A stretch of DNA of 64,000 nt, taken from positions 14,508,001 through 14,572,000 of the forward strand of contig OZ024753.1 in assembly GCA_964016885.1 (NCBI GenBank), given 5' to 3'. Shown here in pieces: positions 18,270-61,359 of this stretch. A program made the translations under genes and the position numbers. A model generated the notes under the pieces. It did not search any database. It was not told the origin of the DNA and saw only the letters and a list, made by a program, of their open reading frames with translations. Numbering within the stretch: the stretch's first letter is position 1; each line of letters begins with the position of its first letter. The stretch is from Eledone cirrhosa. Its lineage: Eukaryota.

Positions 18270-18342
18270 ATATGTGTATATATATATATATATATTATTC
18301 AAAATATTAATAAATGAATACGTTCACATAATCAAAATATAT

Positions 18343-18409
18343 GTTTTATTATATATATTTCGGAGGTACTGTGTTGTTTTTTTTCAGTACATCCTCATCA
18401 GATAAAATA
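18343..18409 (-). ncRNA. Type I hammerhead ribozyme
   Basis: TTTTAT-CTGATGA-GGATGTACTG/CAGTACCTCC-GAAA-TATATA-TA^-ATAAAA. Stem I pairs and stem III is palindromic. Confidence 0.8.
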
Positions 18410-18508
18410 TCTCAACTGTCTTGATGGTTCAATTCCAGTATTGGTAGTGGAATTGAATACTGGAATTGAACCATCAAGACAGTTGAGGTATGTCATACAT
18501 CAATTCCT

Positions 18509-18575
18509 ATATTTCATCTGATGAGGGCGTACTGAAAAAACAGCACAGTACGTCCGAAATATATATAATAAAACA
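18509..18575 (+). ncRNA. Type I hammerhead ribozyme
   Basis: TTTCAT-CTGATGA-GGGCGTACTG/CAGTACGTCC-GAAA-TATATA-TA^-ATAAAA. Confidence 0.8.
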
Positions 18576-18716
18576 TATATTTTCATTATGTGAACGTATT
18601 CATTTATTAATATTTTGAATAATATTACTAACTCCAGAAAACTTCTTTGTAGAGTGCTTTTAATCTATTGTAAAACTATATTCATTGAGTAATCAATGAA
18701 TCATATTAATCTTTGG

Positions 18717-18761
<45 letters not shown>

Positions 18762-19035
18762 CAAAATTCAGACTAACAGAAAACAAAAAAACAGACAAAC
18801 GCAGGAGTAAATGTTACAAATATTATTAGTTTCATGCTTGGTGAGAGTGGGAGATATGGTTGCAACGTTTCTGGCTTAAGCCCTTCATCAGGAGAGTGTG
18901 TGTGTGTGTGTGGGGGGGGACTCCGAGAAGGAATGAGGGGGGAGTTAGTGAGAGAAATAGAAATAGAAATAAATTGAAAATATATACACATAAATACGGT
19001 ATACACACACATATATATTTATATATACATATATA

Positions 19036-19411
19036 CAAGGGTAATCCCAAAAGCAAGGTCTCCAAAGCGAAGGGGACGCAGAGAAACTGTTCGTATGGCT
19101 GTTGGCAACACTGTTGTGATTGGTGCTTCCTTCACTCCCAAACAAGCATGCGTGCGCTTCGCTGGGATGCACAATCTTGGCTTGGCAGCCATTGAGAATG
19201 TAGATCCCGCTGAACGCTACCGCCAAGTGCGAATTTCGCGCAGTTATTTTATACGAGGGCAATCCTTCCGAGGAAAACATTTGTAAAGATCGGCGGATCA
19301 CTCTGGATGCTCTCTGCATTTTGGTTCCTGAGGTTTCGCGAAGCACCATCCACAGGATTTTAACGGAGAAGTTGCAAATCGGAAGAAGACCTTACTTTTG
19401 GGATTGCCCTC
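19036..19411 (+). mobile_element. Tc1/mariner internal-deletion derivative
   Basis: TIRs CAAGGGTAATCCCAAAAGCAAGGTCT / AGACCTTACTTTTGGGATTGCCCTC, with TA at the left. An internal mariner-like HTH remnant reads DRRITLDAL...VSRSTIHRILTEKL. Confidence 0.8.
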
Positions 19412-19854
19412 CACGACCACTTTGCAGTGGAATGATAAATGATAGGGCCCTCAGTCCTATCATCTCATTTCTACAGCTGAGTAAAGTGGAGCAATGTGAA
19501 ATAAAGTGTCTTGCTCAAGGAAACAACATATATATAAATACAGTATACACACACACACGTGTGTGTGTATATATATAACTGGTATACACACATATATATG
19601 TATTTGCATATATATATATATACAGGGTGCGGACGATATTTGTTCGCAAGATTACTGTCTAGGAAAAAAAGAAATGAAATGAATATAGTAAGAAATATAT
19701 ATGTTTACTTCAGGTTTTCAATGAAATAAATACAAACAATAAAAATCAAAATAGACAAAAATAAAACAAATTTACTGATTCCCTCACATTTCTTTTTACT
19801 GTTTTTACTATAATTTCAGTTTCTGACCAAATAACAGCAACAACAACAATAACG

Positions 19855-20568
19855 GTTTCTGATTCAGGCACAAGGGGTGGGGTAAAAGTTGATTAAATCG
19901 ACCTCAGTGCATTACTGGTACTTTATCTGATCAATCCCGTAAGGATGAATGGCAAAGCTAATCTTGGAGGTATCTGAACTCAGAGTATAAAAGGACATAA
20001 CTCTACGCGGCAAAGCATTTTGTTCGACGTTCTACCGATACTGCCAATCCACTGCCCTGAAAAAAATCATGCAAAGCATTTCAGCCGATGCTCTACCAAT
20101 TCTGCCAATCGACTACCCTAAATAATGGTTTCTTATTTAGGCACAAGGCCAGCAATTTTGAGCGAGGGGAAAATCGATTAAATCGTCCGCAGTGCGTGAC
20201 TGGTACTTTATTTTATCGACCCTGTAAGGATGAAAGGCAAAGTTAATGTCGGTGGGATTTGAACTCAGAACACAAAGGGTCATAACTCTATGCTGTAAAG
20301 CATGGCATCCGACCCTCTACCGATTCTGACAATCCACCGCCCTAATAATAATAATGATGAAGATAATGAAAACGATACTGATAATAATTGTTTCTACGTT
20401 TGGCAGCAATTACCCCAGTGCATTATTGGTACTTTATGTTATCGTCCCCCATAAGGATAAAAGGCAAAGTTAACCTAGGCAGGATTTGAACTCAGATTGT
20501 AAAGGGCCGTAACTCTATTCTCCAAAGCATGACGTCCGACCCTCTACCGCTTCTACTAATCCACTGCG
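19855..20568 (-). mobile_element. Three tandem SINE S1 copies (19855-20058, 20125-20343, 20388-20568)
   Basis: Each matches the S1 consensus. Confidence 0.85.
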
Positions 20569-20849
20569 ACAGTGATAATAATAATAACTACATAAAAAAA
20601 ATAGTCAACATCAAATCAAATAAAAAAAAAACCATAACAAAGAAACGAAATGGAAAAAAGAGGAAAAGAAGGGAAACAGTTTTAAAAATAAAACAAGAAA
20701 AAGAGGAAAACCACAAGAGAAAAAATTTGTAAAAAAAAATGTAAAAATTGGAGTTGATTGTAATTTTGGTAAAGGTCAGGAATCTGTATTATAACTGATA
20801 TTGTGACTGAAGATATCAAAAGAGATTTTCAAAATATATCTATTTTATA

Positions 20850-20927
20850 CAGGGTGTCCCCAAAAATGTATACATACTTCAACAGCATTCTAATAAAAGT
20901 GTGTATACATTTTGGTGGGACACCCTG
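20850..20927. mobile_element. 78-bp Tc1/mariner-type MITE
   Basis: TA|CAGGGTGTCCC..AAAATGTATACATACTT / AAGTGTGTATACATTTT..GGGACACCCTG. Confidence 0.75.
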
Positions 20928-20930
20928 TTT

Positions 20931-21282
20931 ATCATCATCATCATTTATAATCATTTCATTTTACGTCCGCTTTTTCCCTGCTTGCAAGGGTGGGACGGGA
21001 ACTGATTCTGGCTTGATTTCTACAGCTGGACGCCCTTCCTAACACCAACCTCATTTACAGTGAGTGCTGGGTGCTTTTTTGCCGTGGCACCTCCACGACC
21101 ACTTTGCAGTGAAATGATAGGGAGCCCAGTCCCTATCATCTCATTTCTACAGCTGAGTAAACTGGAGCAATGTGAAATAAAGTGTCTTGCTCAAGGAAAC
21201 AACACATCACCCGGTCTGAGAATTGAACTCACAACCTTTCGATTGCAAAGCCAATGCTCTAACCACTAAGCCATGTGCCTCC
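20931..21282 (-). mobile_element. SINE S2, full length
   Basis: Matches the S2 consensus. Confidence 0.9.
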
Positions 21283-21292
21283 ATATTTATAT

Positions 21293-21930: not shown

Positions 21931-22185
21931 TATATATACATATATATAATATATATATATATATATAATATATATATATATATAATATATATATACATAC
22001 ATATATATATATACATACATACATATATATATAAAATATATATATATACATACATAATGTAGGAGGTGAGTTTTATTGTAGTACAATAAAGCAATGCAGA
22101 TATCGGATAATAAGCTCTCTACAGTTTGTAGGACTGGAGTATACATAATATATAAGAACAAAAGATGGTTAAAAGAGTTCCATGT

Positions 22186-22252
22186 ATTTTATTATGCGCA
22201 TTTCAAAAACAAATATCATGCAATAATATTTGTGTTTTCATCAGATAAAACA
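22186..22252 (-). ncRNA. Type I hammerhead ribozyme
   Basis: Inverted copy of 22374-22443. Confidence 0.78.
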
Positions 22253-22373
22253 TGAAGACATGATATGAAGGTTAAAAAACACTTGTGGATAGTTCAGTTG
22301 ATAGTTCAGTTGCTATGTTGATTTAAAACTGAACTATCCACAAGTGTTTTTTAACCTTCATATCATGTCTTCA

Positions 22374-22443
22374 TGTTTTATCTGATGAAAACACAAATAT
22401 TATTGCATGATGATATTTGTTTTTGAAATGCGCATAATAAAAT
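22374..22443 (+). ncRNA. Type I hammerhead ribozyme
   Basis: GTTTTAT-CTGATGA-AAACACAAATAT/ATATTTGTTTTT-GAAA-TGCGCA-TA^-ATAAAAT. Stem III is the palindrome ATGCGCAT. Confidence 0.8.
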
Positions 22444-22588
22444 ACATGGAACTCTTTTAACCATCTTTTGTTCTTATATATTATATACATAAATATATAT
22501 ATATATAATATATATAATTTTCCTTCGTTATATATATATGTATAAATATATATATATGTATATATGTATATATATATGTTTATGTATA

Positions 22589-22622
<34 letters not shown>

Positions 22623-25193: not shown

Positions 25194-28100
25194 ATCATCA
25201 TCATCATCAGGTTTAGCGTCCGTGTTCCATGCTTGCATGGGTTTGGACGGGGGTTTTCCCACTTGAGGCAAGAGTGGTTGTCTTGCTCGCATAGGACTGT
25301 CTGGCGGGTTTTCTACAGTTGGATGCCCTTCCTAACACCAACCACATTTACAGTGTGGGGCTGGGAGGTTTTTACCGTGTTGCCTACACGGCCACATTAC
25401 AGCGTGGACTGTCTGGCGGGTTTTCTACAGCTGGATGCCCTTCCTAACACCAACCACATTTACAGTGTGGGGCTGGGAGGTTTTTACCGTGTTGCCTACA
25501 CGGCCACATTTACAGCGTGGACTGTGTGTTTTTTGTCGTGACACCTACACGATCTCATTTGTTTCGGCCTGGATGTTGTGGGACCAACATAACTTTACAT
25601 TGAAAGGGGCGGTGTGGGTGGGGTGGAGGTGGTGGGACGGGGGTGTGTTTTGATAGAGATGCCTACTGACTGTAGTAGGTTTTTACTTTGTATTTAGGTA
25701 AGGCGGGTCTTCTCTATTACTGAGTACCGCCAAAGGTCTCGGTCCAGTGACATTGTCTTGGAGAGGTGTAAGCGTGTGAGGTCGGAATTTATCAGCTCGT
25801 CCCATGTTTTTCTGGGTCTGCCTACTCCGTGGCTACCGTCTATCTTTATTGCCCTGCACTTTGTTATACAGCTGTCGTCTTTCATGCGCATCACGTGACC
25901 GTACCAACGTAGCCTTCTCTCGAGTAAACAACATCTGATCCCTCTTATTTCTAATTTTTTCCTTAGTTCGTTTATGCTTTGCCGTTCACGTATATTACTA
26001 TTGCACATCCAGCGGAGCATGCAAGCTTCGTTCCTCTCTAGTCTGCGTATATCCTCTGCACACAATGCCCAGGTCTCACTGACATGCAGCATTGCTGTTC
26101 GTATGCAGGCATCGTATAACCTGCCTTTCATTTTTAGGGAGAACCCTCTAGCGGCTAATAGTGGTATAAGCTCTCTGAACTTTTTCCATCCAGTTCTGAC
26201 TCTAGCTACTGTACTTTCAGAGCACCCTCCCCCACTGCTGATTTTGTCACCCAGATAACGGAAGCTGTCCACTATTTCTATAGAACCCTCTGCGCAGTTG
26301 AAGGAGCTAGTATTTTGTGGGCACTTGCTGCTACTTATTGCACCAGAGCACCGGCCACATGTAAAATCTATGTTCTTAGTTAGCTTACCTGTGATCCCAC
26401 TACATCTTTTATGCACCCATACTTTGCATTTGGGACATAAAATGGAGTTTCTACCTACGCCTTTCCTACACACTGAGCATGGCCATTTCCCCGATGGGAC
26501 CGCCGCCTTATTTTCTTTCCTACAAACTAGAACTTTAGTCTTAGCCAGGTTAATTTTAAGGCCTTTTGATTCTAGGCCGTGCTTCCATGTTTGGAATTTC
26601 TTCTCTAGTTCGGTCATTGATTCAGCTATGAGCGTTAGATCATCTGCGTATAGGAGTTCCCATGGGCAGCCGGTCTTGAACTCCTCTGTTATAGCCTGAA
26701 GGGCAATAATAAATAGTAGGGGGCTAAGAACAGAGCCCTGATGGACACCAACTTTTACGCTAAACTCTTCACTATATTCGTTGTTAATTCTAACCTTACT
26801 GACTGTTTCTTTATACATGGCTTGTATAGCTCTCACAAGCCATTCGTCAACACCTAGTTTTCTAAGAGACCACCAGATAATGGAACGGGGGACTCTGTCG
26901 AAGGCTTTCTCCAAGTCGACGAAAGCTAAGTATAGGGGTTTACTTTTAGCTAGGTACTTCTCCTGTAGTTGTCGTACAATGAAAAGAGCGTCTGTGGTAC
27001 TTTTGCCTGACACAAACCCGAACTGCATTTCATCTAGATCAATTCTCTCTCTGATTAGTTGCGCTATTACTTTTTCCGTGACCTTCATGACCTGGTCGAT
27101 TAATTTAATGCCTCTATAGTTACTCCTATCTAGGGCATCTCCTTTTCCCTTATAGCAGTTAACGATGATGCTGCTACGCCATTCCTTCGGAACAACCCCA
27201 TTCTGTACGACTTGGTTAACTATCCGGGTGACCATGGTGTGTCCCACCGAACCAGATGCCTTCAGCATCTCAGCAACTATTTCCGAAGGCCCAGCCGCCT
27301 TACCCGTCTTCATATCTTTGATTGCCTTACTTATTATACTACCTTCAACTAACACTGCTGGTCCCTCTATTGGATCGATCTGGGGGAGACTGTCTTTCTC
27401 CCATTTGTTCTGCTCATTTAGAAGCCTTTCGTAGTGACACTTCCAAGCTACCTTCTTATCAGCGTCGGTGATGGCAAGTACGCCATCATCGTTAAGTACA
27501 CACTTCTCCCCGACAATATCACGGTTTTCCTTGACACATTGCCTGGCAATCCTGAACACCTCACGCTTTTGGTCCTCACGTTGTAGAACATGCTTGAACT
27601 TTCTTTCCTCTGCTTCCCTTCTTGCGAAGTACACTTGTCTCCTAGCTTCCCTCCTGGCCACTTGATAGTCTTCTCTACTTCCCCCATCCCGCCATACTTT
27701 CCAAGCCTGCTTTTTGGCCTTAATTGACTCCTCCACCTTACTGTTCCACCACCATGTTACTCTCCTCCTACCTACAGGCCTGCTCCAGCCACAGACTTCG
27801 TCTGCCGCCGTCAGCAGGTTTGCTCTCAGGAATTCCCACTGTTCCTCTATATTATACGACTCTAATTGCTCTTCCTTACTGTCGAAAGCGTCAAGTAATA
27901 TGCTTTGAAATTTATTTCTGGCTATGGGGTCCTTTAGCTTCCATATTTTTCTCCTGAGGATAGTCCTCTTCCGCTGTCTAGTACGTCTCGTCCTGACTAT
28001 GAGGTCGCTAATTATCAGTCTATGTTGGGAGGTGAATTCTTCATGGGGGTGGGATTTAGTGTTAACAACAGACACTCTGTCACGTCTTCTGGTAAGGATA

Positions 28101-28279
28101 TAATCTACCTGGCTTGTGTGTTCCCCCGATCTATAGGTGATCAAGTGATTGTCTCGTTTTTTGAAGTTAGTGTTACAGATAGTTAAGTTATTTGCGTCGC
28201 AGAATTCCAGGATTCTGGAGCCTTCCTCATTTCTAGTACCGAACCCATAGCCTCCATGGATTCCGTCATAGCCGTCACA

Positions 28280-28282
<3 letters not shown>
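25194..28282 (-). mobile_element. RTE-clade LINE family A, 3.1 kb, 5'-truncated, young
   Basis: Open APE-RT frame, 3' UTR with an internal duplication, (CAT)n tail, flanked by TA-rich microsatellite. Confidence 0.95.
25694..28282 (-). CDS. RTE LINE ORF (C-terminal part of APE endonuclease, reverse transcriptase, embedded PHD finger), 5'-partial, 862 aa
   Basis: [57 protein letters not shown] (26639-26650), [14 protein letters not shown]. The upstream part of the track ORF is microsatellite. Confidence 0.93.
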
Positions 28283-28348
<66 letters not shown>

Positions 28349-28534
28349 CATACACATATGCTTATATATATATATATACATATACATACATATATACATA
28401 TACATACATATATATATACATATACATATATATATACATATATATATACACATACATATATATATACACATACATATATACATATACATATACATATGCA
28501 CATACATATATACATATACATATATACATATATA

Positions 28535-28938
28535 CAGTATTCACGTATCGAGACAAAAAAAAGGGGAGGATAGGTGATACATATAGTTATTTGCCAAGTA
28601 GCGTATGCCAAAGGTGCTCGATACTAGTGCCGGCAGTATTAAATATTCGAAGTGTTAATATTTAGTGGGCTAGAGAGTTAGCAGAGCGTAAGCACGTGGG
28701 ACAGTAAGAAATCAGAGAATAGACAGTTAAATCATGTTTATTTAAAACAGCACCTACGTACGTTTCCCCCAGTTGGGCTTCTCAAGGGCATAAATAATCA
28801 AAAGTGTTCTTTACATTGCTCGGAAAGAGTTTTTGGGGTTAAATCCACGTCAAGGTTCATTGCTCGCAAAAATAGCTTGTTTTGATGTTGCAGCAGGTCA
28901 AGGGACGTCCCTTGACCTGCTGCAAAATGAAAACAAGC
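28535..28938 (-). mobile_element. Penelope-like non-coding element with a variant hammerhead (28750-28789), a 3' bulged hairpin (28616-28687) and a terminal palindrome (28875-28938)
   Basis: The minus strand reads GCCC-TTGAGAAG-CCC/GGG-GAAA-CGTACG-TA-GGTGC. A perfect 38-bp palindrome lies at 28888-28925. Confidence 0.55.
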
Positions 28939-33570: not shown

Positions 33571-33584
33571 ATATATATATATAT

Positions 33585-34100
33585 ATATGAATAAAGTTAG
33601 TCCTTCATCAGTGATCTTCCAACCATCATTGGTATTTCATCGCTTTAAAGACCATATACCTCCGGTTGGTGCGAGCAATGGCTAAAAAAAGTCGTTGGGA
33701 CACGTAAATAAAGGAGACACGACTGTGTAAACAAACAAAGATGGTGAAGCAACGAAAAGTGAGGAAGAAGGAGTCAAGTCCCAAATTTCTATGAATTTAA
33801 ATTCGGTGAAATCGTGAATATTCTCTCTCGTTCACGATTTCACCGAATTTAAATTCATAGAAATTTGGGACTTGACTCCTTCTTCCTCACTTTTCGTTGC
33901 TTCACCATCTTTGTTTGTTTACACAGTCGTGTCTCCTTTATTTACGTGTCCCAACGACTTTTTTTAGCCGTTGCTCTCACCAACCGGAGGTATATGGTCT
34001 TTAAAGTGATGAAATACCAATGATGGTTGGAAGATCACTGATGAAGGACTAACTTTATTCATATGTAACCCATTAGCAACCCCGCAGCACGTTTATTCTC
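33585..34100 (+). repeat. 234-bp near-perfect inverted repeat (33585-33818 / 33831-34064, 12-nt loop) with a short unique 3' tail, in (TA)n
   Basis: Only about 3 mismatches between the arms by eye. Confidence 0.9.
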
Positions 34101-34116
34101 ATATATATATATATAT

Positions 34117-34415
34117 ATATTTATTAAAATAACAGATTCCCATTCTTTGCCAGCGAACGTTTCCACGAACCAAAGTATCGTCTTCCTCTCTTCCTCCGGT
34201 TGCAACGTTTTTTGAAATATCCACTTCTGCGTTTACAGATTGACTTTGTTAGTTTCAGAAGATCCCGTTAAGGGTGCAAGCAGAGATTCTTTGCTTAAAC
34301 TTTAATCTGTTATTTTAATAAATATTTGCTCTACGGTTCTTATATATTTGATATATATTTATCCTTATCGAGCCCTCTTTGGATTTTAGTCTTCAAATTT
34401 ATTATTATTACTATT
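34117..34415 (+). mobile_element. Penelope-like element (second copy at 61005-61359) with a variant hammerhead at 34251-34301
   Basis: AGTTT-CAGAAGA-T-CCC/GGG-T-GCAA-GCA/TGC-TT^-AAACT. Inverted arm at 34117-34138 and 3' hairpin at 34328-34373. Confidence 0.65.
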
Positions 34416-34551
34416 ATATATATATATCTGGGTCCAGAAATAGCCGTCAAAACGGCTTCAGCTCTGCCGTCGGGGTCATACATTTTCCTATTAGCCACTC
34501 TACTACCCTAAGTATTGGTCCATCTGATTCCTTACCACAACTCCTTCGTTT

Positions 34552-37143: not shown

Positions 37144-37209
<66 letters not shown>

Positions 37210-37280
37210 TAGCCGTTGAAATGGCTTGAGCTCTGCCGTCAGGGTTAAACATTTTCATATATATATATATATATGTATGT

Positions 37281-37580: not shown

Positions 37581-37642
<62 letters not shown>

Positions 37643-37647
37643 TAGAG

Positions 37648-37832
37648 GTTTTAATATAGAAGAGCTTCTACAGGACTAGAACTGTTTCATTCGTGAGAAA
37701 TCACCATCATGATTTCTCACGACTGAAACAGTTCTAGTCCTGTAGAAGCTCTTCTATATTAAAACTTTTATACTCTGCTATGTATTGAGTACCTTACTTA
37801 CTGTGGTTACCTCCGATTCAACCCGGAATAAC
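37648..37832 (+). mobile_element. Penelope-like family C copy 1 (arms 37648-37703 and 37710-37765)
   Basis: Same family as 56703-56870 and 58339-58541. The inversion truncates the hammerhead core; 3' hairpin at 37772-37790. Confidence 0.7.
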
Positions 37833-40183: not shown

Positions 40184-42727
40184 ATCATCATCATCATCAT
40201 CATTGTTTAACGTCCATATTCCACGCTTGCATGGGTTAGGACGGGAGTTTTCCCACTTGAGGCAAGATTGGTTGTCTTGCTCGTATAGGACTGTCTGGTG
40301 GGTTTTCTACGGCTGGATGCCCTTCCTAATACCAACCACATTTACAGTGTGGAACTGGTAGGTTTTTACCGTGTTACCTACACGGCCACATTATAGCGTG
40401 GACTGTGTATTTTTTTGTCATGACACCTACACGACCTCATTTGTTTCGGGCTGGATGTTGTGGTACCAACATAACTTTACATTGAAAGGGGTGGTGTGGA
40501 TGAGGTGGGGGTAGTGGGACGGGGTGTATTTTATTAGAGGAGCCTACTGACTGTAGTAGGTTTCACTTTGTACTTAGGTAAGGCGGGTCTTCTCTATTAC
40601 TGTGTAGCGCCAAAGATCTCGGTCCAGTGACATTATCTTGGAGAGGTGTAAGTGTGTGAGGTCGGAATTTATCAAGTCGTCCCAGGTTTTTCTGGGTCTG
40701 CCTACTCCGTGGCTACCGTCTATTTTTATTGCCCTGCACTTTTTTATACAGCTGTCGTCTTTCATGCGCATCACGTGACCATAACAACGTAGTCTTCTCT
40801 CGAGTAAACAACATCTGATCCCTCTTATTTCTAATTTTTCCCTTAGTTCATTTATGCTTTGCCGTTCACGTATATTACTATTACACATCCAGCGGAGCAT
40901 GCAAGCTTCGTTCCTCTCCAGTCTGCATATATCCTCTGCACACAATGCCCAGGTCTCACTGCCATGTAACATTGCTGTTCGTATGCAGGCATCATACAGC
41001 CTGCCTTTCATTTTTAGGGAGAACCCTTTAGCGGCTAATAGTGGTATAAGCTCTCTGAACTTTTTCCATCCAGTTCTGACTCTAGCTACTGTACTTTCAG
41101 AGCACCCTCCCCCACAGCTGATTTTGTCACCCAGGTAACGGAAGCTGTCCACTATTTCTATAGAACCATCTGTGCAATGGAATGAGCTAGTATTCTGTGG
41201 GCACTTGCTGCTACTTATTGCACCAGAGCACTGACCACATATAATATCTATGTTCTTAGTTAGCTTACCTGTGATCCCACTACATCTTTTATGCACCCAT
41301 ACTTTGCATTTGGGACATAAAATGGAGTTTCTACCTACTCATTTCCTACACACTGAGCATGGCCATTTCCCGGATGGGACCGGCGCCCTATTTTCTTTCC
41401 TACAAACTAGAACTTTAGTCTTAGACAGGTTAATTTTAAGGCCTTATGATTCTAGGCCATGCATCCATGTTTGGAATTTCTTCTCTAGTTCGGCCATTGA
41501 TTCAGCTATGAGCGTTAGATCATCTGTGTATAGGAGTTCCCATGGGCAGCCAGTCTTGAACTCCACTGTTAAAGCCTGACGGGCAATAATAAATAGTAGG
41601 GGGCTAAGAACGGAGCCCTGATGAACACCAACTTTTACGCTAAACTCTTCACTATATTCGTTGTTAATTCTAACCTTGCTGACTGTTTCTTTATACATGG
41701 CTTGTATAGCTCTCACAAGCCATTCATCAACACCTAGTTTTCTAAGAGCCCACCAGATAATGGAACGGGGGACTCTGTCGAAGGCTTTCTCCAAGTCGAC
41801 AAAAGCTAAGTATAGGGGTTTACTTTTAGCTAGGTACTTCTCCTGTAGTTGTCGTACAATGAAAAGAGCGTCTGTGGTACTTTTACCTGACACAAACCCG
41901 AACTGCATTTCATCTAGATCAATTCTCTCTCTGATTAGTTGCGCTATTACTTTTTCTGTGACCTTCATGACCTGGTCGATTAATTTAATGCCTCTATAGT
42001 TACTCCTATCTAGGGCATCACCTTTACCCTTGTAGCAGTTAATGATGATGCTGCTATGCCAGTCCTTCAGAACAACCCCATTCTGTATGACTTGGTTTAC
42101 TATCCGAGTGACCATGGTGTGTCCCACCATTCCAGAAGCTTTCAGCATTTCAGCAACTATTTCCGAAGGCCCAGCCGCCTTACCCGTCTTTATGTCTTTG
42201 ATTGCCTTACTTATTATACTACCTTCGACTAACAATGCTGGTCCCGCTATTGGGTCGATGTGGGGGAGACTGTCTTTCTCCCATTTATTCTCCTCATTTA
42301 GTAGCCTTTTCCTTGACATATTGCCTAGCAATCCTGAACACTTCACGTTTTTGGTCCTCGCGTTGTAGAACATGCTTGAACTTTCTTTCCTCTGCTTCAC
42401 TTCTTGCGAAGTACACTTGTCTCCTAGCTTCCCTCCTGGCCACTTGATAGTCATCTCTACTTCCCCCATCCCGCCATACTTTCCAAGCATGCTTTTTGGC
42501 CTTAATTGACTCCTCCACCTTACTGTTCCACCACCATGTTACTCTCCTCCTGCCTATAGGCCTGCTCCAGCCACAGACTTCGTCTGCCACCATCAGCAGA
42601 TTTGCTTTCAGGTATTCCCACTGTTCCTCTATATTGTATGACTCTAAATGCTCTTCCTTACTGTCGAAAGCATCAAGTAATATGCTTTTAAATTTATTTC
42701 TGGCTGTGGGGTCCTTTAGCTTCCATA
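40184..42727 (-). mobile_element. RTE LINE family A, 5'-truncated, with an about 100-bp internal deletion and an in-frame stop
   Basis: RT motifs as at 25694-28282, with YADD changed to YTDD. Confidence 0.93.
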
Positions 42728-43102: not shown

Positions 43103-44420
43103 CTGAATCAATGGCTGAACTAGAGAAGAAATTCCAAACATGGAAGCATGGCCTAGAATCAAAAGGCCTTAAAGTTAACTTGTCTAAGACTAAAGTTCTA
43201 GTTTGTAGGAAGGAAAATAGGGCACCGGTCCCATCCGGGAAATGGCCATGCTCAGTGTGTAGGAAAGGAGTAGGTAGAAACTCCATTTTATGTCCCAAAT
43301 GCAAAGTATGGGTGCATAAAAGATGTAGTGGGATCACAGGTAAGCTAACTAAGAACATAGATTTTTATATGTGGCCGGTGCTCTGGTGCAATAAGTAGCA
43401 GCAAGTGCCCACAGAATACTAACTCATTCCATTGCACAGATGGTTCTATAGAAATAGTGGACAGCTTCCGTTACCTGGGGGATAAAATCAGCAGTGGGGG
43501 AGGGTGCTCTGAAAGTACAGTAGCTAGAGTCAGAACTGGATGGAAAACGTTCAGAGAGCTTATACCAATATTGGCCGCTAAAGAGTTCTCTCTAAAAATG
43601 AAAGGCAGGCTGTATGATGCCTGCATACGAACAGCAATGTTACATGGCAGTGAGACCTGGGCATTGTGTGCAGAGGATATACGCAGACTGGAGAGAAACG
43701 AAGCTTGCATGCTCCACTGGATGTGTAATAGTAATATACATGAACGGCAAAGCATAAACGAACTAAGGGAGAAATTAGAAATAAGAGGGATCAGATGTTG
43801 TTTACTCGAGAGAAGACTACGTTGGTATGGTCACGTGATGCGCATGAAAGACGACAGCTGTATAAAAAAGTGCAGGGCAATAAAAATAGATGGTAGCCAC
43901 GGAGTAGGCAGACCCAGAAAAACATGGGACGAGCTGATAAATTCCGACCTCACACACTTACACCTCTCCAAGACAATGTTACTGGACTGAGATCTTTGGC
44001 GCTACACAGTAATACAGAAGACCTGCCTTACCTAAGTGCAAAGTGAAACCTACTACAGTCAGTAGGCACCTCTAACAAAATACACCCCCGTCCCACTACC
44101 CCCACCTCATCCACACCACCCCTTTCAATGTAAAGTTATGTTGGTACCACAACATCCAGCCCCAAACAAATGAGGTCGTGTAGGTGTCACAACAAAAAAA
44201 CACAGTCCACGCTGTAATGTGGTGGCGTAGGTAACACGGTAAAAACCTCCCAGCCCCACACTGTAAATGTGGTTGATGTTAGGAAGGGCATCCAGCCATA
44301 GAAAACCCGCCAGACAGTCCTATGCGAGCAAGACAACCACTCTTGCCTCAAGTGGGAAAACTCCCATCCAGACCCATGCGAGCGTGGAATATGGATGTTA
44401 AACGAAGATGATGATGATGA
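43103..44420 (+). mobile_element. RTE LINE family A, 5'-truncated, frameshifted
   Basis: Inverted homolog of 40184-41505. Confidence 0.93.
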
Positions 44421-47095: not shown

Positions 47096-48288
47096 GTTAG
47101 GGTTACATCTGGTAGTCAATGATTCTGTGACCCGGCGTTAGGGCTACATCTGGTAGTCAATGATGCTGTGACCCAGCATTAGGGCTACATCTGGGAGTCA
47201 ATGATACTGTGACCCAGCGTTAGGGTTACATCTGGTAGTCAATGATGCTGTGACCCAGCGTTAGGGCTACATCTGGGAGTCAATGATGCTGTGACCCAGC
47301 GTCAGGGCTACATCTGGTAGTCAATGATGCTGTGACCCAGCGTCAGGGCTACATCTGGTAGTCAATGATACTGTGACCCAGCGTTAGGGCTACATCTGGG
47401 AGTCAATGATACTGTGACCCAGCGTTAGGGCTACATCTGGTAGTCAATGATACTGTGACCCAGCGTTAGGGCTACATCTGGGAGTCAATGATACTGTGAC
47501 CCAGCGTTAGGGCTACATCTGGTAGTCAATGATGCTGTGACCCAGCGTTAGGGCTACATCTGGTAGTCAATGATGCTGTGACCCAGCGTTAGGGTTACAT
47601 CTGGTAGTCAATGATGCTGTGACCCAGCGTTAGGGCTACATCTGGTAGTCAATGATATTGTGACCCAGCATTAGGGCTACATCTGGTAGTCAATGATGCT
47701 GTGACCCAGCGTCAGGGCTACATCTGGTAGTCAATGATGCTGTGACCCAGCGTTAGGGCTACATCTGGTAGTCAATGATGCTGTGACCCAGCGTTAGGGC
47801 TACATCTGGTAGTCAATGATGCTGTGACCCAGCGTCAGGGCTACATCTGGTAGTCAATGATACTGTGACCCAGCGTTAGGGCTACATCTGGTAGTCAATG
47901 ATGCTGTGACCCAGCGTTAGGGCTACATCTGGTAGTCAATGATGCTGTGACCCAGCGTTAGGGCTACATCTGGTAGTCAATGATGCTGTGACCCAGCGTT
48001 AGGGCTACATCTGGTAGTCAATGATACTGTGACCCAGCATTAGGGCTACATCTGGTAGTCAATGATACTGTGACCCAGCGTTAGGGCTACATCTGGTAGT
48101 CAATGATACTGTGACCCAGCATTAGGGCTACATCTGGTAGTCAATGATACTGTGACCCAGCGTTAGGGCTACATCTGGTAGTCAATGATACTGTGACCCA
48201 GCATTAGGGCTACATCTGGTAGTCAATGATACTGTGACCCAGCATTAGGGCTACATCTGGTAGTCAATGATACTGTGACCCAGCGTTA
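47096..48288. repeat. Minisatellite, 41-bp unit, 29 copies
   Basis: Unit GTTAGGGCTACATCTGGTAGTCAATGATGCTGTGACCCAGC. Confidence 0.97.
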
Positions 48289-51819: not shown

Positions 51820-52097
51820 TAGTATTAGTGCTCAGAATAGCGATGTATACATGAATGTATGTATAGTATATTTGGCAATATACCGTATGTTTAATTAAAA
51901 ACATTTAGAAGACCATTTGCTATGAGTTTTAAAGTAGTGATTATGCCACTTACTTACTCTCGGCAAACAAGAGAGTAAGTGAATAAGAGAGTAAGTAAGT
52001 GACATAGTCACTACTTTAAAACTCATAGTGAATGGTCTTCTAAATGTTTTTAATTAAACATACGGCATATTGCCAAATATACTATATATACATTCAT
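51820..52097 (-). repeat. Inverted-repeat element (arms 51851-51961 and 51987-52097); family also at 56235-56680
   Basis: About 110-bp arms; homologous sequence at 56235-56340 and 56510-56615. Confidence 0.8.
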
Positions 52098-52397
52098 ATC
52101 ATCATCATCATATCATCAATTTACGCCCGCTTTTCCCTGCTTGCAAGGGTGGGATGGGAACTGATTCTGGCTTGATTTCTACAGCTGGATGCCCTTTCTA
52201 ACACCAACCTCATTTACAGTTAATGCTGGGTGCTTTTTTGCCGTGGCACCTCCACGACCACTTCTACAGCTGAGTAAACTAGAGCAATGTGAAATAAAGT
52301 GTCTTGCTTAAGGAAACAACACATCACGCGGTCTGAGAATTGAACTCACAACCTTTCGATTGCAAGGCCAATGCTCTAACCATTAAGCTATGTGCCT
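52098..52397 (-). mobile_element. SINE S2 with an internal deletion
   Basis: Matches the S2 consensus. Confidence 0.88.
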
Positions 52398-52424: not shown

Positions 52425-52562
52425 GTACAGAATTAGCCGTCGAAACGGCTTGAGCTCAGCCGTCGGGGTCCTACTTGTTCCTATTACCCACTCTACTACC
52501 CTAAGTATTGAGTACTTTGGTGCGTTATGGTCCACCTGGTTCCTTACCACATTTCCTTCGTT
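52425..52562 (+). mobile_element. Short structured element family D (also 34431-34552, 37203-37257, 22517-22529), TA-flanked
   Basis: AGCCGT-CGAA-ACGGCT hairpin, ACTC-TACT/AGTA-TT-GAGT hairpin, and a common 3' end TCCTTCGTT-(TA)n. Confidence 0.6.
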
Positions 52563-52762: not shown

Positions 52763-52818
<56 letters not shown>

Positions 52819-52820
<2 letters not shown>

Positions 52821-53178
52821 TTTTTGTATTTGTTTTGCAAGATTTTTTTATTTCAAAACGTGTCGAAACAGATATTATTATAGTTTGGGAGGAATTTGCT
52901 GCCAATAAAAAGCACACGTATGTTTCACATCAATTTATTATTATAATTTTTCAGTTGACTACTTTAATAACCAGATGGCACCTTAGTTCTTGATTGTCCT
53001 CAAAGTAGTCACCAAGGCGACGAGGTCACAGAATGTGTGATGACAGAGCTTTGATGACAATCAATAACTGATTATTAAACTAACTGACTAGGAAGTTATA
53101 ATAATATATTGAAGTAAAGTTCAGCAGGTGCTTGAGTTTTTTTATTGGTAGCATGACTCTCCCAAAGTATAACAATAT
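52819..53178. mobile_element. Asymmetric inverted-repeat element (related copy at 55879-56225)
   Basis: Shared left end ATTTGTTTTGC...GTGTCGAAACA; arms 52872-52911 / 53138-53178. Confidence 0.55.
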
Positions 53179-53555
53179 AATATAATATATATATATATAT
53201 ATATAGCTCATTCAAATAATTGTTAAGATTTAGTTTCTCCATCCATTTGATTATAAGAAATGGTACGCATCCATTTTCCTTCTATGAATGTTGAAAAAAA
53301 ATTGTTTTGAATAAAGTTATGAGACTACTATTTTATTACTTATCCCTGTTTTGTTTAAAATAATTTACCACATCTATTTATCTATATATACACACACATA
53401 TATATATATATATATTAGAAAAAGTTGGGGCCTGATGGCTGAGCTCTTGTTGTTTTGACAGCTAATTCTACTCTACTAGCTCAAGTATCGAGTACTTTGT
53501 TGAATAATAGTTGTACTAGTTTAATATTGGTTTCATCTTTATATATATATTTTTT

Positions 53556-53815
53556 AGTATATGTTGGTTGTTTACCGACACCTCAGTATGCAGATTGGAA
53601 CACTCGACGAAGTACGCAGGTTGGTTTGTTTACTCCAGAGTAATGTAAAATAATTAAGTCAAATAGGTAAAATATGGCTTCGTTTATTATAAATTATAGA
53701 TATACTGCTATATATATTTCAGTGACAGCCGAATAATGGCTGTCACCGAAATATATATAGCAGTATATCTATAATTTATAATAAATGAAGCCAAATTTTA
53801 CCTATTTGACTTAAT

Positions 53816-53822
<7 letters not shown>
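53556..53822 (-). mobile_element. Penelope-like element folded back at hammerhead stem II (arms 53646-53730 and 53738-53822)
   Basis: Centre reads GTGACAGCC-GAATAAT-GGCTGTCAC-C-GAAA-TATATA-TA-GCAG. Confidence 0.65.
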
Positions 53823-55878: not shown

Positions 55879-56225
55879 ATTTGTTTTGCGAGGTTTTTGA
55901 TATGAAATCGTGTGTCGAAACAAATATTGTTATACTTGGGGAGGGTCATATTGTTGTAATAATATTGCCAGAATTAAAAACAGAACACACTCACTGTTTG
56001 GTTGGTTTTCGTTTCTGTATCTTTTATATCAGTGAATTCATTTGGTCCTCAATGTTTACCAATGACTGACCAATGATGGCATAGATATACAATACAACAG
56101 GCGGAACATAATAGCACCATTGACGATGTTGCAGATGTGAAAACCAACCAAACTGTGAGTATGTTCTGTGATTAATTCTGGCAATATTATTACAACAATA
56201 TGACCCTCCCCAAGTATAACAATAT
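55879..56225. mobile_element. Asymmetric inverted-repeat element (arms 55924-56010 and 56139-56225)
   Basis: About 87-bp imperfect arms, TA-flanked. Confidence 0.6.
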
Positions 56226-56355
56226 ATATATATATGTATGTATGGTATATTTGGCAATATACTGTTTGTTTAATTAAAAACACTTAGAAGATCATACACT
56301 ATCTGTTTTAAAGTAGTGACTATGTCGCTTACTTCTTTTCGGTGAAAGAAGGGAG

Positions 56356-56400
56356 AGAAGCTGACAGTCTGTTTCACGCTGATTGGCGTTCATCAGACCC
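56356..56400 (-). ncRNA. Hammerhead ribozyme motif (second, degenerate copy at 56615-56660)
   Basis: CTGATGA-ACGC/GCGT-GAAA-CA-GAC-TG-TC^; stem I is weak in this copy. Confidence 0.6.
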
Positions 56401-56702
56401 ACACACCCCACTGCTTTCGCCAAAAATTATAGAAGCTGGATTCTTATAGAATTCCAGTCAAAAATCAGGAGCTGATTATACAGACCGATTGCCGGTCCAG
56501 CAAAAATTAAGTATTAGGATTTGTGCTCTGAAATAGCGATGTATACATGAATGTATGTATAGTACATTTGGCAATATACCGTATGTTTAATTAAAAACAT
56601 TTAGAAGGCCATTTAGAAGCTGACAGTCTATTTCATGTTGGTTGGCGTTCATCAGAGACACGCACCCCACTGCTTCCGCATATATATATATATATATATA
56701 CA

Positions 56703-56863
56703 TTATTCCGGGTTGAGTCGGAGGTAACCACAGTAAGTAAGGTACTCAATACATTGCAGAGTATAAAAGTTTTAATATAGATGAGATTCTACAGGACTAG
56801 AACTGTTTCATTCTTTAGAAATCATCAGAAAGAATGAAACAGTTCTAGTCCTGTAGAATCTCA

Positions 56864-56870
<7 letters not shown>
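56703..56870 (-). mobile_element. Penelope-like family C copy 2 (arms 56775-56816 and 56829-56870)
   Basis: Hammerhead core CTGATGA-TTTC-TAAA-GAAT-GAAA-CAG/CTG-TA; 3' hairpin at 56744-56762. Confidence 0.7.
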
Positions 56871-56922: not shown

Positions 56923-57094
56923 ATATCAGCAAGTATTGCACCCCCAAAAAATATATATAAACGTCGGTGTGAAGGAAGGAGATTAGGAATTTATTTGCTT
57001 TAACATATGTTTCTGTGTCTATTATAATTATCTACATATGCTGACTACATTGTATATTGTTCAATCATATGCAATATTTAATTATACAAACACA

Positions 57095-57127
<33 letters not shown>

Positions 57128-57131
<4 letters not shown>

Positions 57132-57299
57132 ACAAAGTGGAGATGTTACATAGGATATTTATTGCTTAACCAGGATTGAGCAATAGATCTCCTATGTAAC
57201 ATCTCCACCTCGTTCTTATTATATATATTCTGCTCTGCATCATGTGCTGACTATGGTTCTCTCATCAGTTTTCTTTGAACCAGGATTTACTGAACTTTC

Positions 57300-57302
<3 letters not shown>
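57128..57302 (+). repeat. Inverted repeat (57128-57169 / 57176-57217) with a unique 3' tail, TA-flanked
   Basis: GTGGAGATGTTACATAGGA versus TCCTATGTAACATCTCCAC. Confidence 0.7.
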
Positions 57303-57348
<46 letters not shown>

Positions 57349-57412
57349 AGCGAATGTTCAACTGTCAAGGTTGTTTTCCATGGTTATGTCACTATTTATA
57401 AAACAAATTTTG

Positions 57413-57477
57413 TATTTTATCTGATGAAAGCACACCAAGATTGGTTTGGTTGCCCTTGAAATATATATAATAAAATA
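57413..57477 (+). ncRNA. Type I hammerhead ribozyme within a TA-flanked element (57347-57520)
   Basis: TATTTTAT-CTGATGA-AAG...CTT-GAAA-TATATA-TA^-ATAAAATA. The 8-bp stem I is extended by TATTTATAAAAC / GTTTTATAAATA. Confidence 0.78.
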
Positions 57478-57556
57478 ATTATGGTTTTATAAATATACTT
57501 TCCATTTATTATTATATTGTATATATATATATATACAGTATATATATATATATATA

Positions 57557-57736: not shown

Positions 57737-58180
57737 TAAATAAATTATTTCGTCCAGTGTCCTAATTAGTATACCAAATTCAACATACTCTTAACAATAA
57801 AGGATTCTACCTTTGGCAGGCCTAAGGCCAGACATTTTACTTAATCAAATACTTTACTGGTTCCTTATTTTATTGACCTAAAAAGGATGAAAGGTAAATT
57901 GGATCATGGCAAGATCTGACCTTGGAACACAAAGAGCTAGAAGAAATTCTGCTATGAATTTTTCTGCTGCTCTAGCAACTCTGCTACTGCCCTCTGTAGG
58001 CAGAAAGGGAGTAATTAATGTATGGTGACCATATCCACACTTGTGTATATCAATTAAGTTGGCATTATCTTTGTCTGTTCCATCATCATTTTAGTTTTGA
58101 TTGCCTCCAGAATGTAACCTTATTAAAGCCGTGCTAGCGTGGAAGATAGACGTTAAACGAAGAAGATGATGATGATGATG

Positions 58181-58260
58181 AAGGTGTCTGATGATATCAT
58201 AGCAGTGGTTGGCCGGAAATGCATGGGCTCTGTCATCATTGAAATATATATTACAGCCTT
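58181..58260 (+). ncRNA. Degenerate type I hammerhead
   Basis: AAGGTGT-CTGATGA-(decayed long stem II)-GAAA-TATATA-TT^-ACAGCCTT. Confidence 0.5.
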
Positions 58261-58306
58261 ATAAATAAAGGACTTTCACATCAGCAACTACTTCACATTT
58301 TCTTAT

Positions 58307-58338
<32 letters not shown>

Positions 58339-58339
<1 letters not shown>

Positions 58340-58541
58340 TAATATAGAAAAGCTTCTACAGGACTAGAACTGTTTCATTCGTGAGAAATCATCAGGAAGC
58401 TGGCTGTCCAAGTCATGATGATTTCTCACGAATGAAACAGTTCTAGTCTTGTAGAAGCTTTTCTATATTAAAATATTTATACTATGCTATGTATTGAGTA
58501 CCTTACTTACTGTGGTTACCTCCGATTCAACCTGGAATAAC
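58339..58541 (+). mobile_element. Penelope-like family C copy 3 (arms 58339-58394 and 58416-58471)
   Basis: Same family as the 37648 and 56703 copies, with a different inversion breakpoint. Confidence 0.7.
58351..58401 (-). ncRNA. Complete type I hammerhead ribozyme
   Basis: AGCTTC-CTGATGA-T-TTC/TCAC/GAA-T-GAAA-CAG-TTCTAGTC-CTG-TA^-GAAGCT. All three stems pair. Confidence 0.82.
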
Positions 58542-58542
58542 A

Positions 58543-58623
<81 letters not shown>

Positions 58624-58934
58624 GAAGGGTATAGAAAGTGTTGTAGCAAGAAGCCAACAGTATTCCATAATATATAAGTGACTATAGCGTCAAAATGGGA
58701 AAACAGTTAACGTAAGATGTGGGTATTATTATTGATATATACATTGATATATATATAAATATATTGATATATATATATATTGATATATATATATATATAT
58801 CAATAATAAATGTAAGGGGAAAATAGAGAAAATAAATAATCTTTTCTCCAAAGTCCCAACTGCAGTTTCACCGATGGGCATGCAGTTATAATGCCATGAA
58901 AGTGCACCAAGTGTTTATGATATATATATATATA

Positions 58935-59612
58935 TCATCATCATCACCATTTAATGTCCATTTATCCACACTAGCATGGTTTAGATGAGTTGTTCTATAG
59001 CTGAATGCCCTTCCTAATGCCAATGGCATTTACAGTGTAGATTGGTTGCTTTTTATTATGACACCCAAATAACCACTTTACGGTGTGGACTGTGTGCATT
59101 TTATCATGGCAGCAACATGACAACTTTACAGGGTGGACTGTGTGCATTTTGTCATGACAGCAACATGACAACTTTACAGGGTGGACTGTGTGCATTTTGT
59201 CATGACAGCAACATGACAACTTTACAGGGTGGACTGTGTGCATCTTGTCATGACATCAACATGATCACTTTACAGTGTAGACTGGGTGCTTTTTGTCATG
59301 TCATCAACATGACCACTTTACAGTGTAGACTGGGTGCTTTTTGTCATGTCATCAACATGACCACTTTACAGTGTAGACTGGGTGCTTTTTGTCATGTCAT
59401 CAACATGATCACTTTACAGTGTAGACTGGGTGCTTTTTGTCATGTCATCAACATGAACACTTTACAGTGTGGACTGGGTGCCTTTTGTCAGGACACCAAC
59501 ATAATCACTTCATAGTGTGGCCTGGTTGCTGTTTGTCAGGACACCAACATGGCCACTTTGCAGTGTCGACTGGGTGCCTTTTGACATGAGACCAACACAA
59601 CCACTTTACCAT
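58935..59612 (-). repeat. RTE/SINE tail with its 48-bp module expanded to about 12 tandem copies
   Basis: Unit CACTTTACAGTGTAGACTGGGTGCTTTTTGTCATGTCATCAACATGAC, adjoining a (CAT)n tail and ATGCCCTTCCTAA. Confidence 0.85.
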
Positions 59613-59693
59613 ATGGCCACCATTCAGTACATAAATGTAGAAATCTAAATTTTCACATACACACACATGTACATATATGTGTGTGTGTGTGAG

Positions 59694-59727
<34 letters not shown>

Positions 59728-59794
59728 TATGTATATATGTACATACCTATATATATATATATACATGTATATATGTACATATATATATATATAT

Positions 59795-59857
<63 letters not shown>

Positions 59858-60272
59858 TAGATGCATGTATGTGCGTAGATTATATAAATGGCGTAAATCT
59901 GAAATTAGAGCAGGCCTCAGAAAGAAAGAACGAAAGAAAGATAGACAGAAGGAAAGTGTGTAGAAAAGTAAAAGTATGAAGGATAGGTTCAAACAAACCT
60001 ATTCTTAGTTTTCATTTGTGGTGAAGGAAGGTTATTTAAGAAAGAGTGGACATTTAATTGGTACAGATCTATTGATTAGGCAGCGGCATGTATTGAAAAG
60101 TAGAGGTCTAGTTGATTGGGGCGGATGGTTGGATGGGAAGGAAGGTGAGGACATCACATTAAAACCACTCTCAAAACAAGCTAGAGACACAAGAAAACTA
60201 ATTTGTCTCCCACATTAATTAGTGCTTGCTTTCTTATTATATGTATATATATGTATATATATATATATATAC

Positions 60273-60316
<44 letters not shown>

Positions 60317-60378
60317 TTTTTTGTATATACATATATATATACATATTTTATATGTATATATATATATATATATATATT

Positions 60379-60711
60379 ATCATCATTTCATTTTACGTCC
60401 GCTTTTCCCTGCTTACAAGGGTGGGACGGGAACTGATTCTGGCTTGATTTCTACAGCTCGATGCCTTTCCTAACACCAACCTCATTTACAGTGAGTGCTG
60501 GGTACTTTTTTGCCGTGGCACCTCCAGGACCACTTTGCAGTGGAATGATAGAGACCCCAGTCCCTATCATCTCATTTCTACAGCTGAGTAAACTGGAGCA
60601 ATGTGAAATAAAGTGTCTTGCTCAAGGAAACAACATATCACCCGGTCTGAGAATTGAACTTACAACCTTTCGATTGCAAGGCCAATGCTCTAACCACTAA
60701 GCCATGTGCCT
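60379..60711 (-). mobile_element. SINE S2
   Basis: Matches the S2 consensus. Confidence 0.9.
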
Positions 60712-61004
60712 ATATAGTAATAATAAATCTTCATTGCTATCATGATGATGATGATCATCATTTTACATAGTATAACTATATATTACTAAAACTCTGTGAT
60801 TTCATACAGCCAAAATGGCACATAATGGGAAAATACTTTGAAAGGAAGTTGACCCTGAAAACAAGTTTCACATAAATTGGAGCACGGGTTCCCGAGATAT
60901 GGGGTTTTTCTGGGTACTTTCATAAATAGCGAGAAAGAGATAGTGGTTGAGAGAGAATACATTGAAAGAGAGACATAGAGAGAGAATATTTATATACACA
61001 CATA

Positions 61005-61359
61005 TAGTAATAATAATAAATTTGAAGACCAAAATCCAAAGAGGGCTCGATAAGGATAAATTAAAATCAAATATATAAGAACCGTAGAGCAAATATTTAT
61101 TAAAATAACAGATTAAAGTTAAAGCAAAGAATCGCTGCTTTCACCCTTAACGGGATCTTCTGAAACTAACAAAGTCAATCTGTGAACGCAGAAGTGAATA
61201 TTTCAAAGAGTGTTACAACCAGAGGAAGACAAGAAGACGATACTTTGGTTCGTGGAAATGTTCCCTGGCAAAGAACGGGAAAAAACGAATTATTTGGAGC
61301 CAAGACGTAAAATATCCGCGTATAGATTGTACTATCCGTTAAACTTTAATTTGTTATTT
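61005..61359 (-). mobile_element. Penelope-like element with a variant hammerhead at 61117-61167
   Basis: AGTTT-CAGAAGA-T-CCC/GGG-T-GAAA-GCA/TGC-TT^-TAACT. Inverted arm at 61332-61359 and 3' hairpin at 61045-61090. Confidence 0.65.

Follow-up and report, generated by a model that had tools for sequence, protein, structure and literature searches.

Hammerhead motifs in (TA)n tracts of the Eledone cirrhosa genome point to stubs of Hydra-clade Penelope-like elements

What are the short, hammerhead-bearing elements that lie in the (TA)n tracts of the Eledone cirrhosa genome? The question arises from a stretch of 64,000 nucleotides (the window; assembly GCA_964016885.1, contig OZ024753.1, positions 14,508,001 to 14,572,000 of the forward strand), in which a preliminary description made from the sequence had listed 16 motifs resembling type I hammerhead ribozymes. 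The analysis reported here indicates that these motifs very probably sit in the terminal pseudo-long terminal repeats (pLTRs) of several families of Penelope-like elements (PLEs) belonging to the Hydra clade. The fuller account, in which several Hydra-clade families have been left as short, often folded-back stubs in (TA)n tracts, is held with high confidence, only a shade below that of the identity itself.

Every one of the 16 motifs was found in the window at its place. They sort into 11 families, where at least eight had been proposed: A1 (57413), A2 (18343, 18509), B (22186, 22374), C (56356, 56615), D (56785, 58351), F (58181), G (28750), H (34251, 61117), K (53738), L (58860) and Q (57000). 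A strict type I descriptor (CUGANGA, helix I of at least 4 bp, helix II of at least 3, helix III of at least 2, GAAA and UH) recovers five motifs, at 18344-18407(-), 22185-22252(-), 22374-22444(+), 57413-57477(+) and 58351-58401(-), against none in 598 of 600 dinucleotide shuffles of the window and one in the remaining two; a looser descriptor recovers eight, against shuffle means of 0.11-0.14. Ten motifs had been called canonical, a label that these five keep. The other five are decayed copies: those at 18509 and 56356 carry a single helix I mismatch each, helix II is broken at 56615, half of helix I was lost at a fold-back junction at 56785, and helices I and II are both mismatched at 58181. 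Relatives elsewhere in the genome show full pairing in each case. The three motifs set apart as variants are real core variants, with a U3-A8 core at 28750(-) and the core CAGAAGA in the family shared by 34251(+) and 61117(-), where either copy carries an additional defect (GCAA in place of GAAA in the former, a U-U first pair of helix I in the latter). The half-motifs at 53738, about 57000 and about 58860 are 5'-truncated copies of families whose other copies hold a complete motif. At the family level, the forms of A1, A2, B, D and K show the type I core, helices I-III and the UH site, and those of C, F and Q were judged by eye to be type I hammerheads. A search of Rfam was uninformative, with no hammerhead family among the best 150 of 495 matches (E<=10).

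The identity of the elements is revealed by longer relatives elsewhere in the genome. In families A1, B, D and H, pairs of motifs on the same strand and 3.3-6 kb apart flank one long open reading frame (ORF), and full-length elements consist of a pLTR with a hammerhead, an ORF encoding reverse transcriptase (RT), a CxCx5C linker and a GIY-YIG endonuclease, a 3' untranslated region (UTR) and a second pLTR with a hammerhead. Coding copies include L031 (frameshifted) and L091 for A1; L092-L094, with open frames of 738-808 codons, and L099, with 821, for B; L149, with 758 codons, for D; and L151 (645 codons, then a break), L153, L156 and L161 for H. Copies of family G reach the RT in L143 and endonuclease sequence in L138, L134 and L144. 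Direct pLTRs with a hammerhead, together with an inverted truncated copy, were found in L031, L092-L094, L149 and L151, and the window stubs of A1, B, D, G and H are 88-97% identical to the ends of coding elements. The earlier suggestion of truncated or non-autonomous Penelope-like or retrozyme elements, to be checked by looking for a linked RT and GIY-YIG ORF, is thus borne out: the ORF was found for these five families, which are truncated PLEs, and family C is retrozyme-like. Nearby ORFs were rejected as links for A2 (L013), C (L082, L083 and L090), F (L182), K and a further family, M, because a TA tract or unrelated sequence intervenes or the order is wrong. Among sequencing runs listed as holding the family B element there was no RNA dataset.

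Hydra-clade proteins, as described by Craig et al. 2021 (PMC8557442), are marked by DKT, a CxCx5C linker, a C-terminal GIY-YIG and the lack of CCHH. In the five element proteins compared, DKT replaces DKG in all five; RxRW[KR] is present in three, the other two having RxRW followed by a different residue; and YxDD is present in four. All five have the linker as well as a GIY-YIG-like motif at the C terminus and none has CCHH, while CxxC and CxH flank a conserved E and N in three, the two other rows ending before that region. The supplement of the same paper includes Hydra-1_Obim of Octopus bimaculoides, with (TA)n insertion and a hammerhead, and its protein shows the same blocks by eye as the element proteins. 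Atlas neighbours of these proteins carry GIY-YIG and RVT_1, and the AlphaFold2 model of an element protein has a predicted local distance difference test (pLDDT) score of 93.9. In a tree of 116 of 120 homologs the five element proteins form one clade with support 1.0, which, with top hits as the sample, suggests a radiation within the lineage. A profile comparison with the RT of an RTE-type element in the window gave a probability of 1.2%, with the region up to YxDD aligned, and was not used as evidence.

Insertion shows a regular pattern across families. Among 280 distinct copies of eight families, a non-random set from the fetched loci, 245 run directly from family sequence into a TA tract, which lies within 10 nt of 4% of random positions. 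The 5' ends of copies vary and the 3' ends are fixed, at one of two points downstream of the predicted cleavage site: +48-50 and +142-143 in A1, +43-45 and +131-136 in B, about +21 and +89-93 in D, +21-25 and +115 in H, +60 and +224 in G, +61 and +155-161 in K, and +127-134 and +165 in C. In fold-backs one arm is short and the other long. A hairpin of the form RCTC-loop-GAGY, with the stem variants ACTC/GAGT, GCTC/GAGC and GCAC/GTGC, starts 4-10 nt beyond the copy ends, at +58 and +152 in A1, +53 and about +143 in B, +28 and +99 in D, +32 and +119 in H, +68 and +234 in G, and +68 in K. Metagenomic loci of related proteins have a sense-strand hammerhead in 47 of 78 cases, and the hairpin follows 38 of the 51 hammerheads with at least 100 nt downstream, against 98 of 2002 background windows. 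Neither 'hairpin' nor 'stem-loop' occurs in the main text of Craig et al. (PMC8557442). Standing beside both copy ends, the hairpin is a concrete candidate for a protein-binding signal, and the balance tips slightly towards its being the start signal for copying.

How widespread are these motifs? Fifty-nine 10-kb stretches (590 kb), taken at fixed steps from 26 large contigs of the 3.0-Gb genome, contain 56 canonical motifs by the strict descriptor, against 0-1 in ten shuffles. This density of one per 10.6 kb gives an estimate of about 283,000 canonical motifs genome-wide (bootstrap 192,000-380,000). A relaxed descriptor allowing three cores finds 109, against 12-19 in shuffles, or one per 6.3 kb and an estimated 476,000 or so genome-wide. 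The window, with one strict motif per 12.8 kb, is near the sample and therefore typical. The shuffled control proposed in the preliminary description is thus exceeded in both window and sample; its density of one motif per 4-5 kb was too high by about 1.5-2 fold, and the very large ribozyme complement expected from it is borne out, with the canonical motifs numbering about 3 x 10^5 and not 6-7 x 10^5. A TA tract lies within 258 nt of 51 of the 56 sampled canonical motifs, as against 27% of random positions, and helix III is fully self-complementary in 41. Searches with exact patterns matched A1 and A2 together 7,032 times, B 18,087, C 196, D 20,923 and H 21,865, a total of 68,103, with none for any reversed pattern; several coding families have tens of thousands of copies each.

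Published counts offer a scale for these numbers. Metazoan PLE hammerheads number about 2,000-9,000 per genome (PMC4209133), as against the estimated 283,000 here, and 235 Rfam hammerhead hits were reported in the giant squid (PMC6962438), in another species and by another method. The estimate exceeds even the 126,247 hammerheads of the axolotl, the highest published count in the comparison (PMC7229834), which is a rough comparison because the methods differ. Standard Rfam-based annotation may miss a complement of this kind, and with a motif about every 10 kb a potential cleavage site would be present in many host introns.

Not all families keep the consensus core. The U3-A8 core of families G and L belongs to a type of variant already described (PMC4209133), and the U-U with which helix II opens in D and H is frequent as the first pair in published Hydra hammerheads (PMC8557442). 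Family H is a different case. This family of more than 18,000 copies has A at position 4 in place of the conserved U4; the A is found in the first 100 of 18,019 matches to a pattern that allowed A, C or T, and in all 40 distinct copies from the fetched loci. Helices I-III are intact in this family, and coding full-length copies are present. A4 occurs in none of 57 metagenomic hammerheads and is absent from the Hydra hammerheads of File S2 (PMC8557442). U4C is a natural variant of reduced activity (Perreault et al., PMC3088659), and no hammerhead U4A stands among the 20 best-ranked literature matches, a comparison outside which falls Lunse et al. 2017, the likeliest list of PLE variants. Around the site, the seven letters of H read as the reverse complement of the canonical seven, and a micro-inversion could therefore account for U4A. 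The spread of H with A4 may mean either that U4A functions as a natural core or that elements can multiply without cleavage.

In the window, the A2 fold-back at 18295..18717 lies between TA tracts and has two unequal inverted arms; its motifs are at 18344..18407(-), with a palindromic helix III, and at 18512..18573(+), and an ACTC...GAGT hairpin, 18631..18657(+), lies in the tail of the long arm. Its arms align with each other over 18292-18625. It is about 70% identical over 124 nt to the A1 pLTR, and the elements are to this extent not all 'largely unrelated', as they had been described. The B fold-back, 22055..22475, is 95% identical to the pLTR of the full-length L093 and holds strict motifs on both strands (22185..22252 and 22374..22444). 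The G stub, 28538..28912(-), is 95% identical to copies that enter RT or GIY-YIG coding sequence, with its hammerhead at 28750-28791 and hairpin at 28614-28687. Two H stubs resemble the full-length L151: 34121..34414(+), 97% identical, with the motif at 34251-34301 and the hairpin at 34328-34375, and 60990..61365(-), 93% identical, with the motif at 61117-61167 and the hairpin at 61043-61090. Family D is represented by a fold-back at 37640..37832, truncated within the hammerhead, with a hairpin at 37772-37792; by a stub at 56700..56865(-), 96% identical to the full-length L149, whose hammerhead (56785-56831) has a shortened helix I and whose hairpin is at 56742-56762; and by a fold-back at 58340..58545, with the strict hammerhead 58351-58401(-) and a plus arm truncated at the core. 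The A1 stub, 57347..57519(+), is 88% identical to both pLTRs of L031 and contains the strict motif 57413-57477.

Other stubs in the window belong to families without a coding copy so far. The K fold-back, 53545..53822, is centred on hammerhead helix II and has a 3' half-motif at 53738-53764; other copies have a full CUGAAGA motif. Stubs of Q (56927..57100, minus strand) and L (58801..58919, minus strand) each hold a 3' half-motif, near 57000 and 58860, with a full motif of long helix II in other copies of Q and a U3-A8 core in those of L. The F stub at 58175..58305(+) has a decayed hammerhead at 58183-58257, whose relatives pair a 5-bp helix I, and it abuts a SINE-like (short interspersed element-like) end and a (TC)n run; (TA)n does not always bound the elements on both sides. 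Family C forms a partial tandem of its 316-nt non-coding unit at 56236..56680(-), with decayed hammerheads at 56356-56400 and 56615-56659, and a fold-back lacking a hammerhead at 51820..52098. The latter and the D fold-back at 37640 were absent from the preliminary description, whose view of all the hammerheads as 'minimal' does not extend to D and H, where helix III has 4-5 bp and a large loop. The fold-back centres at 53720-53748 and 37690-37715 lie in or beside hammerhead helix II, a position suggesting that the point at which copying stops or snaps back is set by RNA structure. The fold-back arms in the window are free of any strong one-way A-to-G bias, and no RNA-editing footprint is therefore claimed.

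Other repeats share the TA setting. A 98% fold-back at 33582-34067 has arms that end in a hammerhead-like motif of permuted strand order, near 33590-33660(-) and 33990-34060(+), in which the cleavage site comes first, then GAAA, then CUGAUGA. The motif can be drawn with a GGUA/UACC helix III and a helix I of 7 bp, helix II being uncertain, and four copies occur in the loci; it resembles type-SGC (PMC10085705). Family M (34430-34550, 37203-37255 and 52425-52561) is abundant, inserts in TA and has the 3' half of a hammerhead, with two fixed ends (+17 and +97), a hairpin of the RCTC/GAGY type and 43 of 50 copies running into TA. Its 5' ends are concentrated at a single point, and among 33 copies none showed the 5' core. 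Family N (52818-53185 and 55880-56221) forms TA-bounded fold-backs with a 3' half resembling GAAA and helix III, the 5' core again not seen. Further short TA-bounded pieces are at 18760-18900(-), 57127-57302(-), 53416-53540 and 58621-58730, two of them with CUGAUGA and a decayed 3' half. Both long copies of family D examined (L148:4900-7700 and L149) have a 2-3 kb interrupted (TA/TG)n tract, of 62-72% alternating sequence, at a shared position of the 3' UTR; this family may thus spread the microsatellite besides targeting it.

Family C stands apart. Its 316-nt unit has 38% GC and a longest ATG frame of 33 codons, and it occurs in partial tandems and fold-backs. Its sequence supports a place among non-LTR retrozymes, defined by a non-coding tandem unit of 170-400 nt with a type I hammerhead (PMC7229834; bioRxiv 10.64898/2026.07.22.740005), and it shares with those of metazoans a low-GC unit of about 300 nt with one such hammerhead (PMC7229834). 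It differs from them in occurring mainly in the form of short partial tandems and fold-backs that have two fixed ends in TA tracts. A 41-nt likeness of the unit to the start of the A1 ORF (E 0.015) was too weak to be used.

Could most of the families be free-standing non-autonomous retrozymes like C, instead of the ends of coding elements? C itself fits the published definition and five further families have no ORF link so far. Yet families with coding full-length copies (A, B, D and H) supply 67,907 of the 68,103 exact matches, a count in which A pools A1 and A2 and is coding only in part; moreover, A2 resembles the A1 pLTR, and A2 and K share the hairpin and the pattern of ends. Free-standing retrozymes are therefore an improbable account of most families. 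It is more improbable still, and by a wide margin, that the fold-backs are DNA transposons targeting TA, akin to miniature inverted-repeat transposable elements, with an incidental likeness to hammerheads. Many copies are near-perfect palindromes in a TA context, as such elements would be, but the equal terminal inverted repeats of a DNA transposon were not found: arms are unequal, the inversion reaches a variable centre, and the 5' ends are variable, the 3' ends fixed. Target duplications are unreadable inside TA tracts. The same sequence also flanks RT ORFs as direct repeats, helices I-III differ among families with pairing kept, and for A1, B, D, G and H coding copies refute the transposon reading outright. 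Chance matching in DNA rich in AT and microsatellites has next to no probability left as the source of the motifs. CTGATGA does occur in (ATG)n runs and LINE (long interspersed element) fragments of the window, and about 15 of the 109 relaxed hits are background; the controls nevertheless refute chance, with five strict motifs in the window against 0-1 in shuffles, 56 in the sample against 0-1, and 68,103 exact matches against none reversed.

Several observations weigh against the assignment of the stubs to Hydra-clade PLEs. The window itself holds no RT/GIY-YIG ORF of Hydra type, and A2, F, K, L, Q and C have no contiguous ORF of their own in the loci fetched, where flanks were mostly 1.5 kb. 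Pfam searches with 3, 7 and 30 proteins of the element type returned nothing above cut-off and no RT domain, GIY-YIG appearing only below it (E 0.012), and a PDB sequence search with a 121-row profile returned nothing below E 0.56. The domain calls consequently rest on motifs, on the visible likeness to Hydra-1_Obim and on the Atlas neighbours, and the tree is one without named reference PLEs. As to the pattern of ends, the 280 copies were not drawn at random, end positions beside AT-rich sequence are uncertain by a few bases, and in family C the RCTC hairpin is present in 0 of 18 copies. Minimum free energy folds of ten window motifs mostly lack the three-helix fold, and self-cutting is for all motifs a prediction from sequence.

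How would a Hydra-clade PLE leave such stubs? The Hydra protein may bind element RNA extending past the hammerhead, either uncut read-through RNA or a religated circle; inserted copies retain both sides of the cleavage site, which implies a template that was uncut or religated. The protein would nick the TA tract on both strands, and copying would begin at the two hairpin-marked sites, with early-stopping target-primed reverse transcription the likely source of head-to-head stubs in which one arm bears a tail. The role of the hammerhead would be to trim the 5' end of the RNA out of read-through transcripts; where helix III is short and palindromic it would probably cut as a dimer, and it is likely dispensable at the insertion step. 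Cleavage in vivo by the canonical families is predicted with reasonable, not strong, confidence. The family C unit is likely moved by the enzymes of Hydra elements. A precedent exists in the Poseidon element PAc of Anolis (Frangieh et al. 2024, PMC11167929): there AT-rich DNA is cut in both strands, two internal start sites on the RNA downstream of the hammerhead delimit a tail, uncut RNA serves as the chief template, and insertion in vitro proceeds without cleavage. The Poseidon ribozyme cuts only with protein. The two systems differ in that PAc, which belongs to a different clade from the Hydra elements here, begins copying at an AC-rich stem-loop within the ORF, whereas the two copy ends here are upstream of the ORF and precede the hairpin by 4-10 nt.

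The novelty implied by the preliminary description is not supported for the system itself, since Hydra elements with hammerheads in (TA)n have been published (PMC8557442). Besides the protein marks, the elements share with that clade (TA)n insertion, inverted 5'-truncated copies and a canonical hammerhead near the 3' end. They differ in their tails, about 70-165 nt here against 30-40 bp there, and in number: the published set includes one octopus family and few additions outside Cnidaria, and here at least five coding families fall in one clade. The type I hammerheads of pLTRs in metazoans (Cervera and de la Pena 2014, PMC4209133) share the short palindromic helix III, the prevalence of solo copies from truncated PLEs, the opposite-strand pairs 100-700 bp apart and the U3-A8 variants; D and H depart from those minimal forms. 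Among the matches listed, literature on octopus, Penelope and hammerhead came down to Craig 2021 and the giant squid genome, a search on the Hydra clade gave nothing further, and the available part of a 2026 O. vulgaris repeat paper (PMC13282606) has no 'ribozyme'. The present analysis adds an estimate of motif number across the genome, made against controls, and the fixed U4A core.

The rest of the window is also rich in repeats. An RTE-type LINE at 25697-28540(-) has a long open frame with RVT_1 (E 1.6e-32) and a PHD finger, its 5' end bordering on the TA tract beside the G stub, and fragments of such LINEs lie at 12328-13251, 40577-42538 and 43361-43987. Two copies of a SINE-like repeat at 61580-62238 lie in inverted orientation 55 nt from each other, as a pair of 302 nt and 97% identity. 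Minisatellite arrays occupy 6170-7183 (49 nt), 47096-48288 (41 nt), 16203-16621 (54 nt) and 59029-59609 (48 nt); those with units of 48-49 nt, at 59029 and 48615, are expansions of a segment of the SINE-like repeat. Outside the window, L160:3920-5083(-) is an uninterrupted frame of 388 codons that we take to be tubulin-like.

On why PLEs carry hammerheads, Craig et al. raise the view that hammerheads may simply parasitize them (PMC8557442). This genome offers near-intact ORFs together with many ribozyme families, and family H, spread widely with an altered core, is a natural comparison. Tentatively, and with a little less than an even chance of being right, the whole may be read as a lineage-specific radiation of Hydra elements with about 3-5 x 10^5 motifs, the densest complement in the comparison, and two hairpin-marked starts, in which either U4A works or cleavage is dispensable. 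If that is true, either outcome for U4A would bear on what PLE hammerheads are for.

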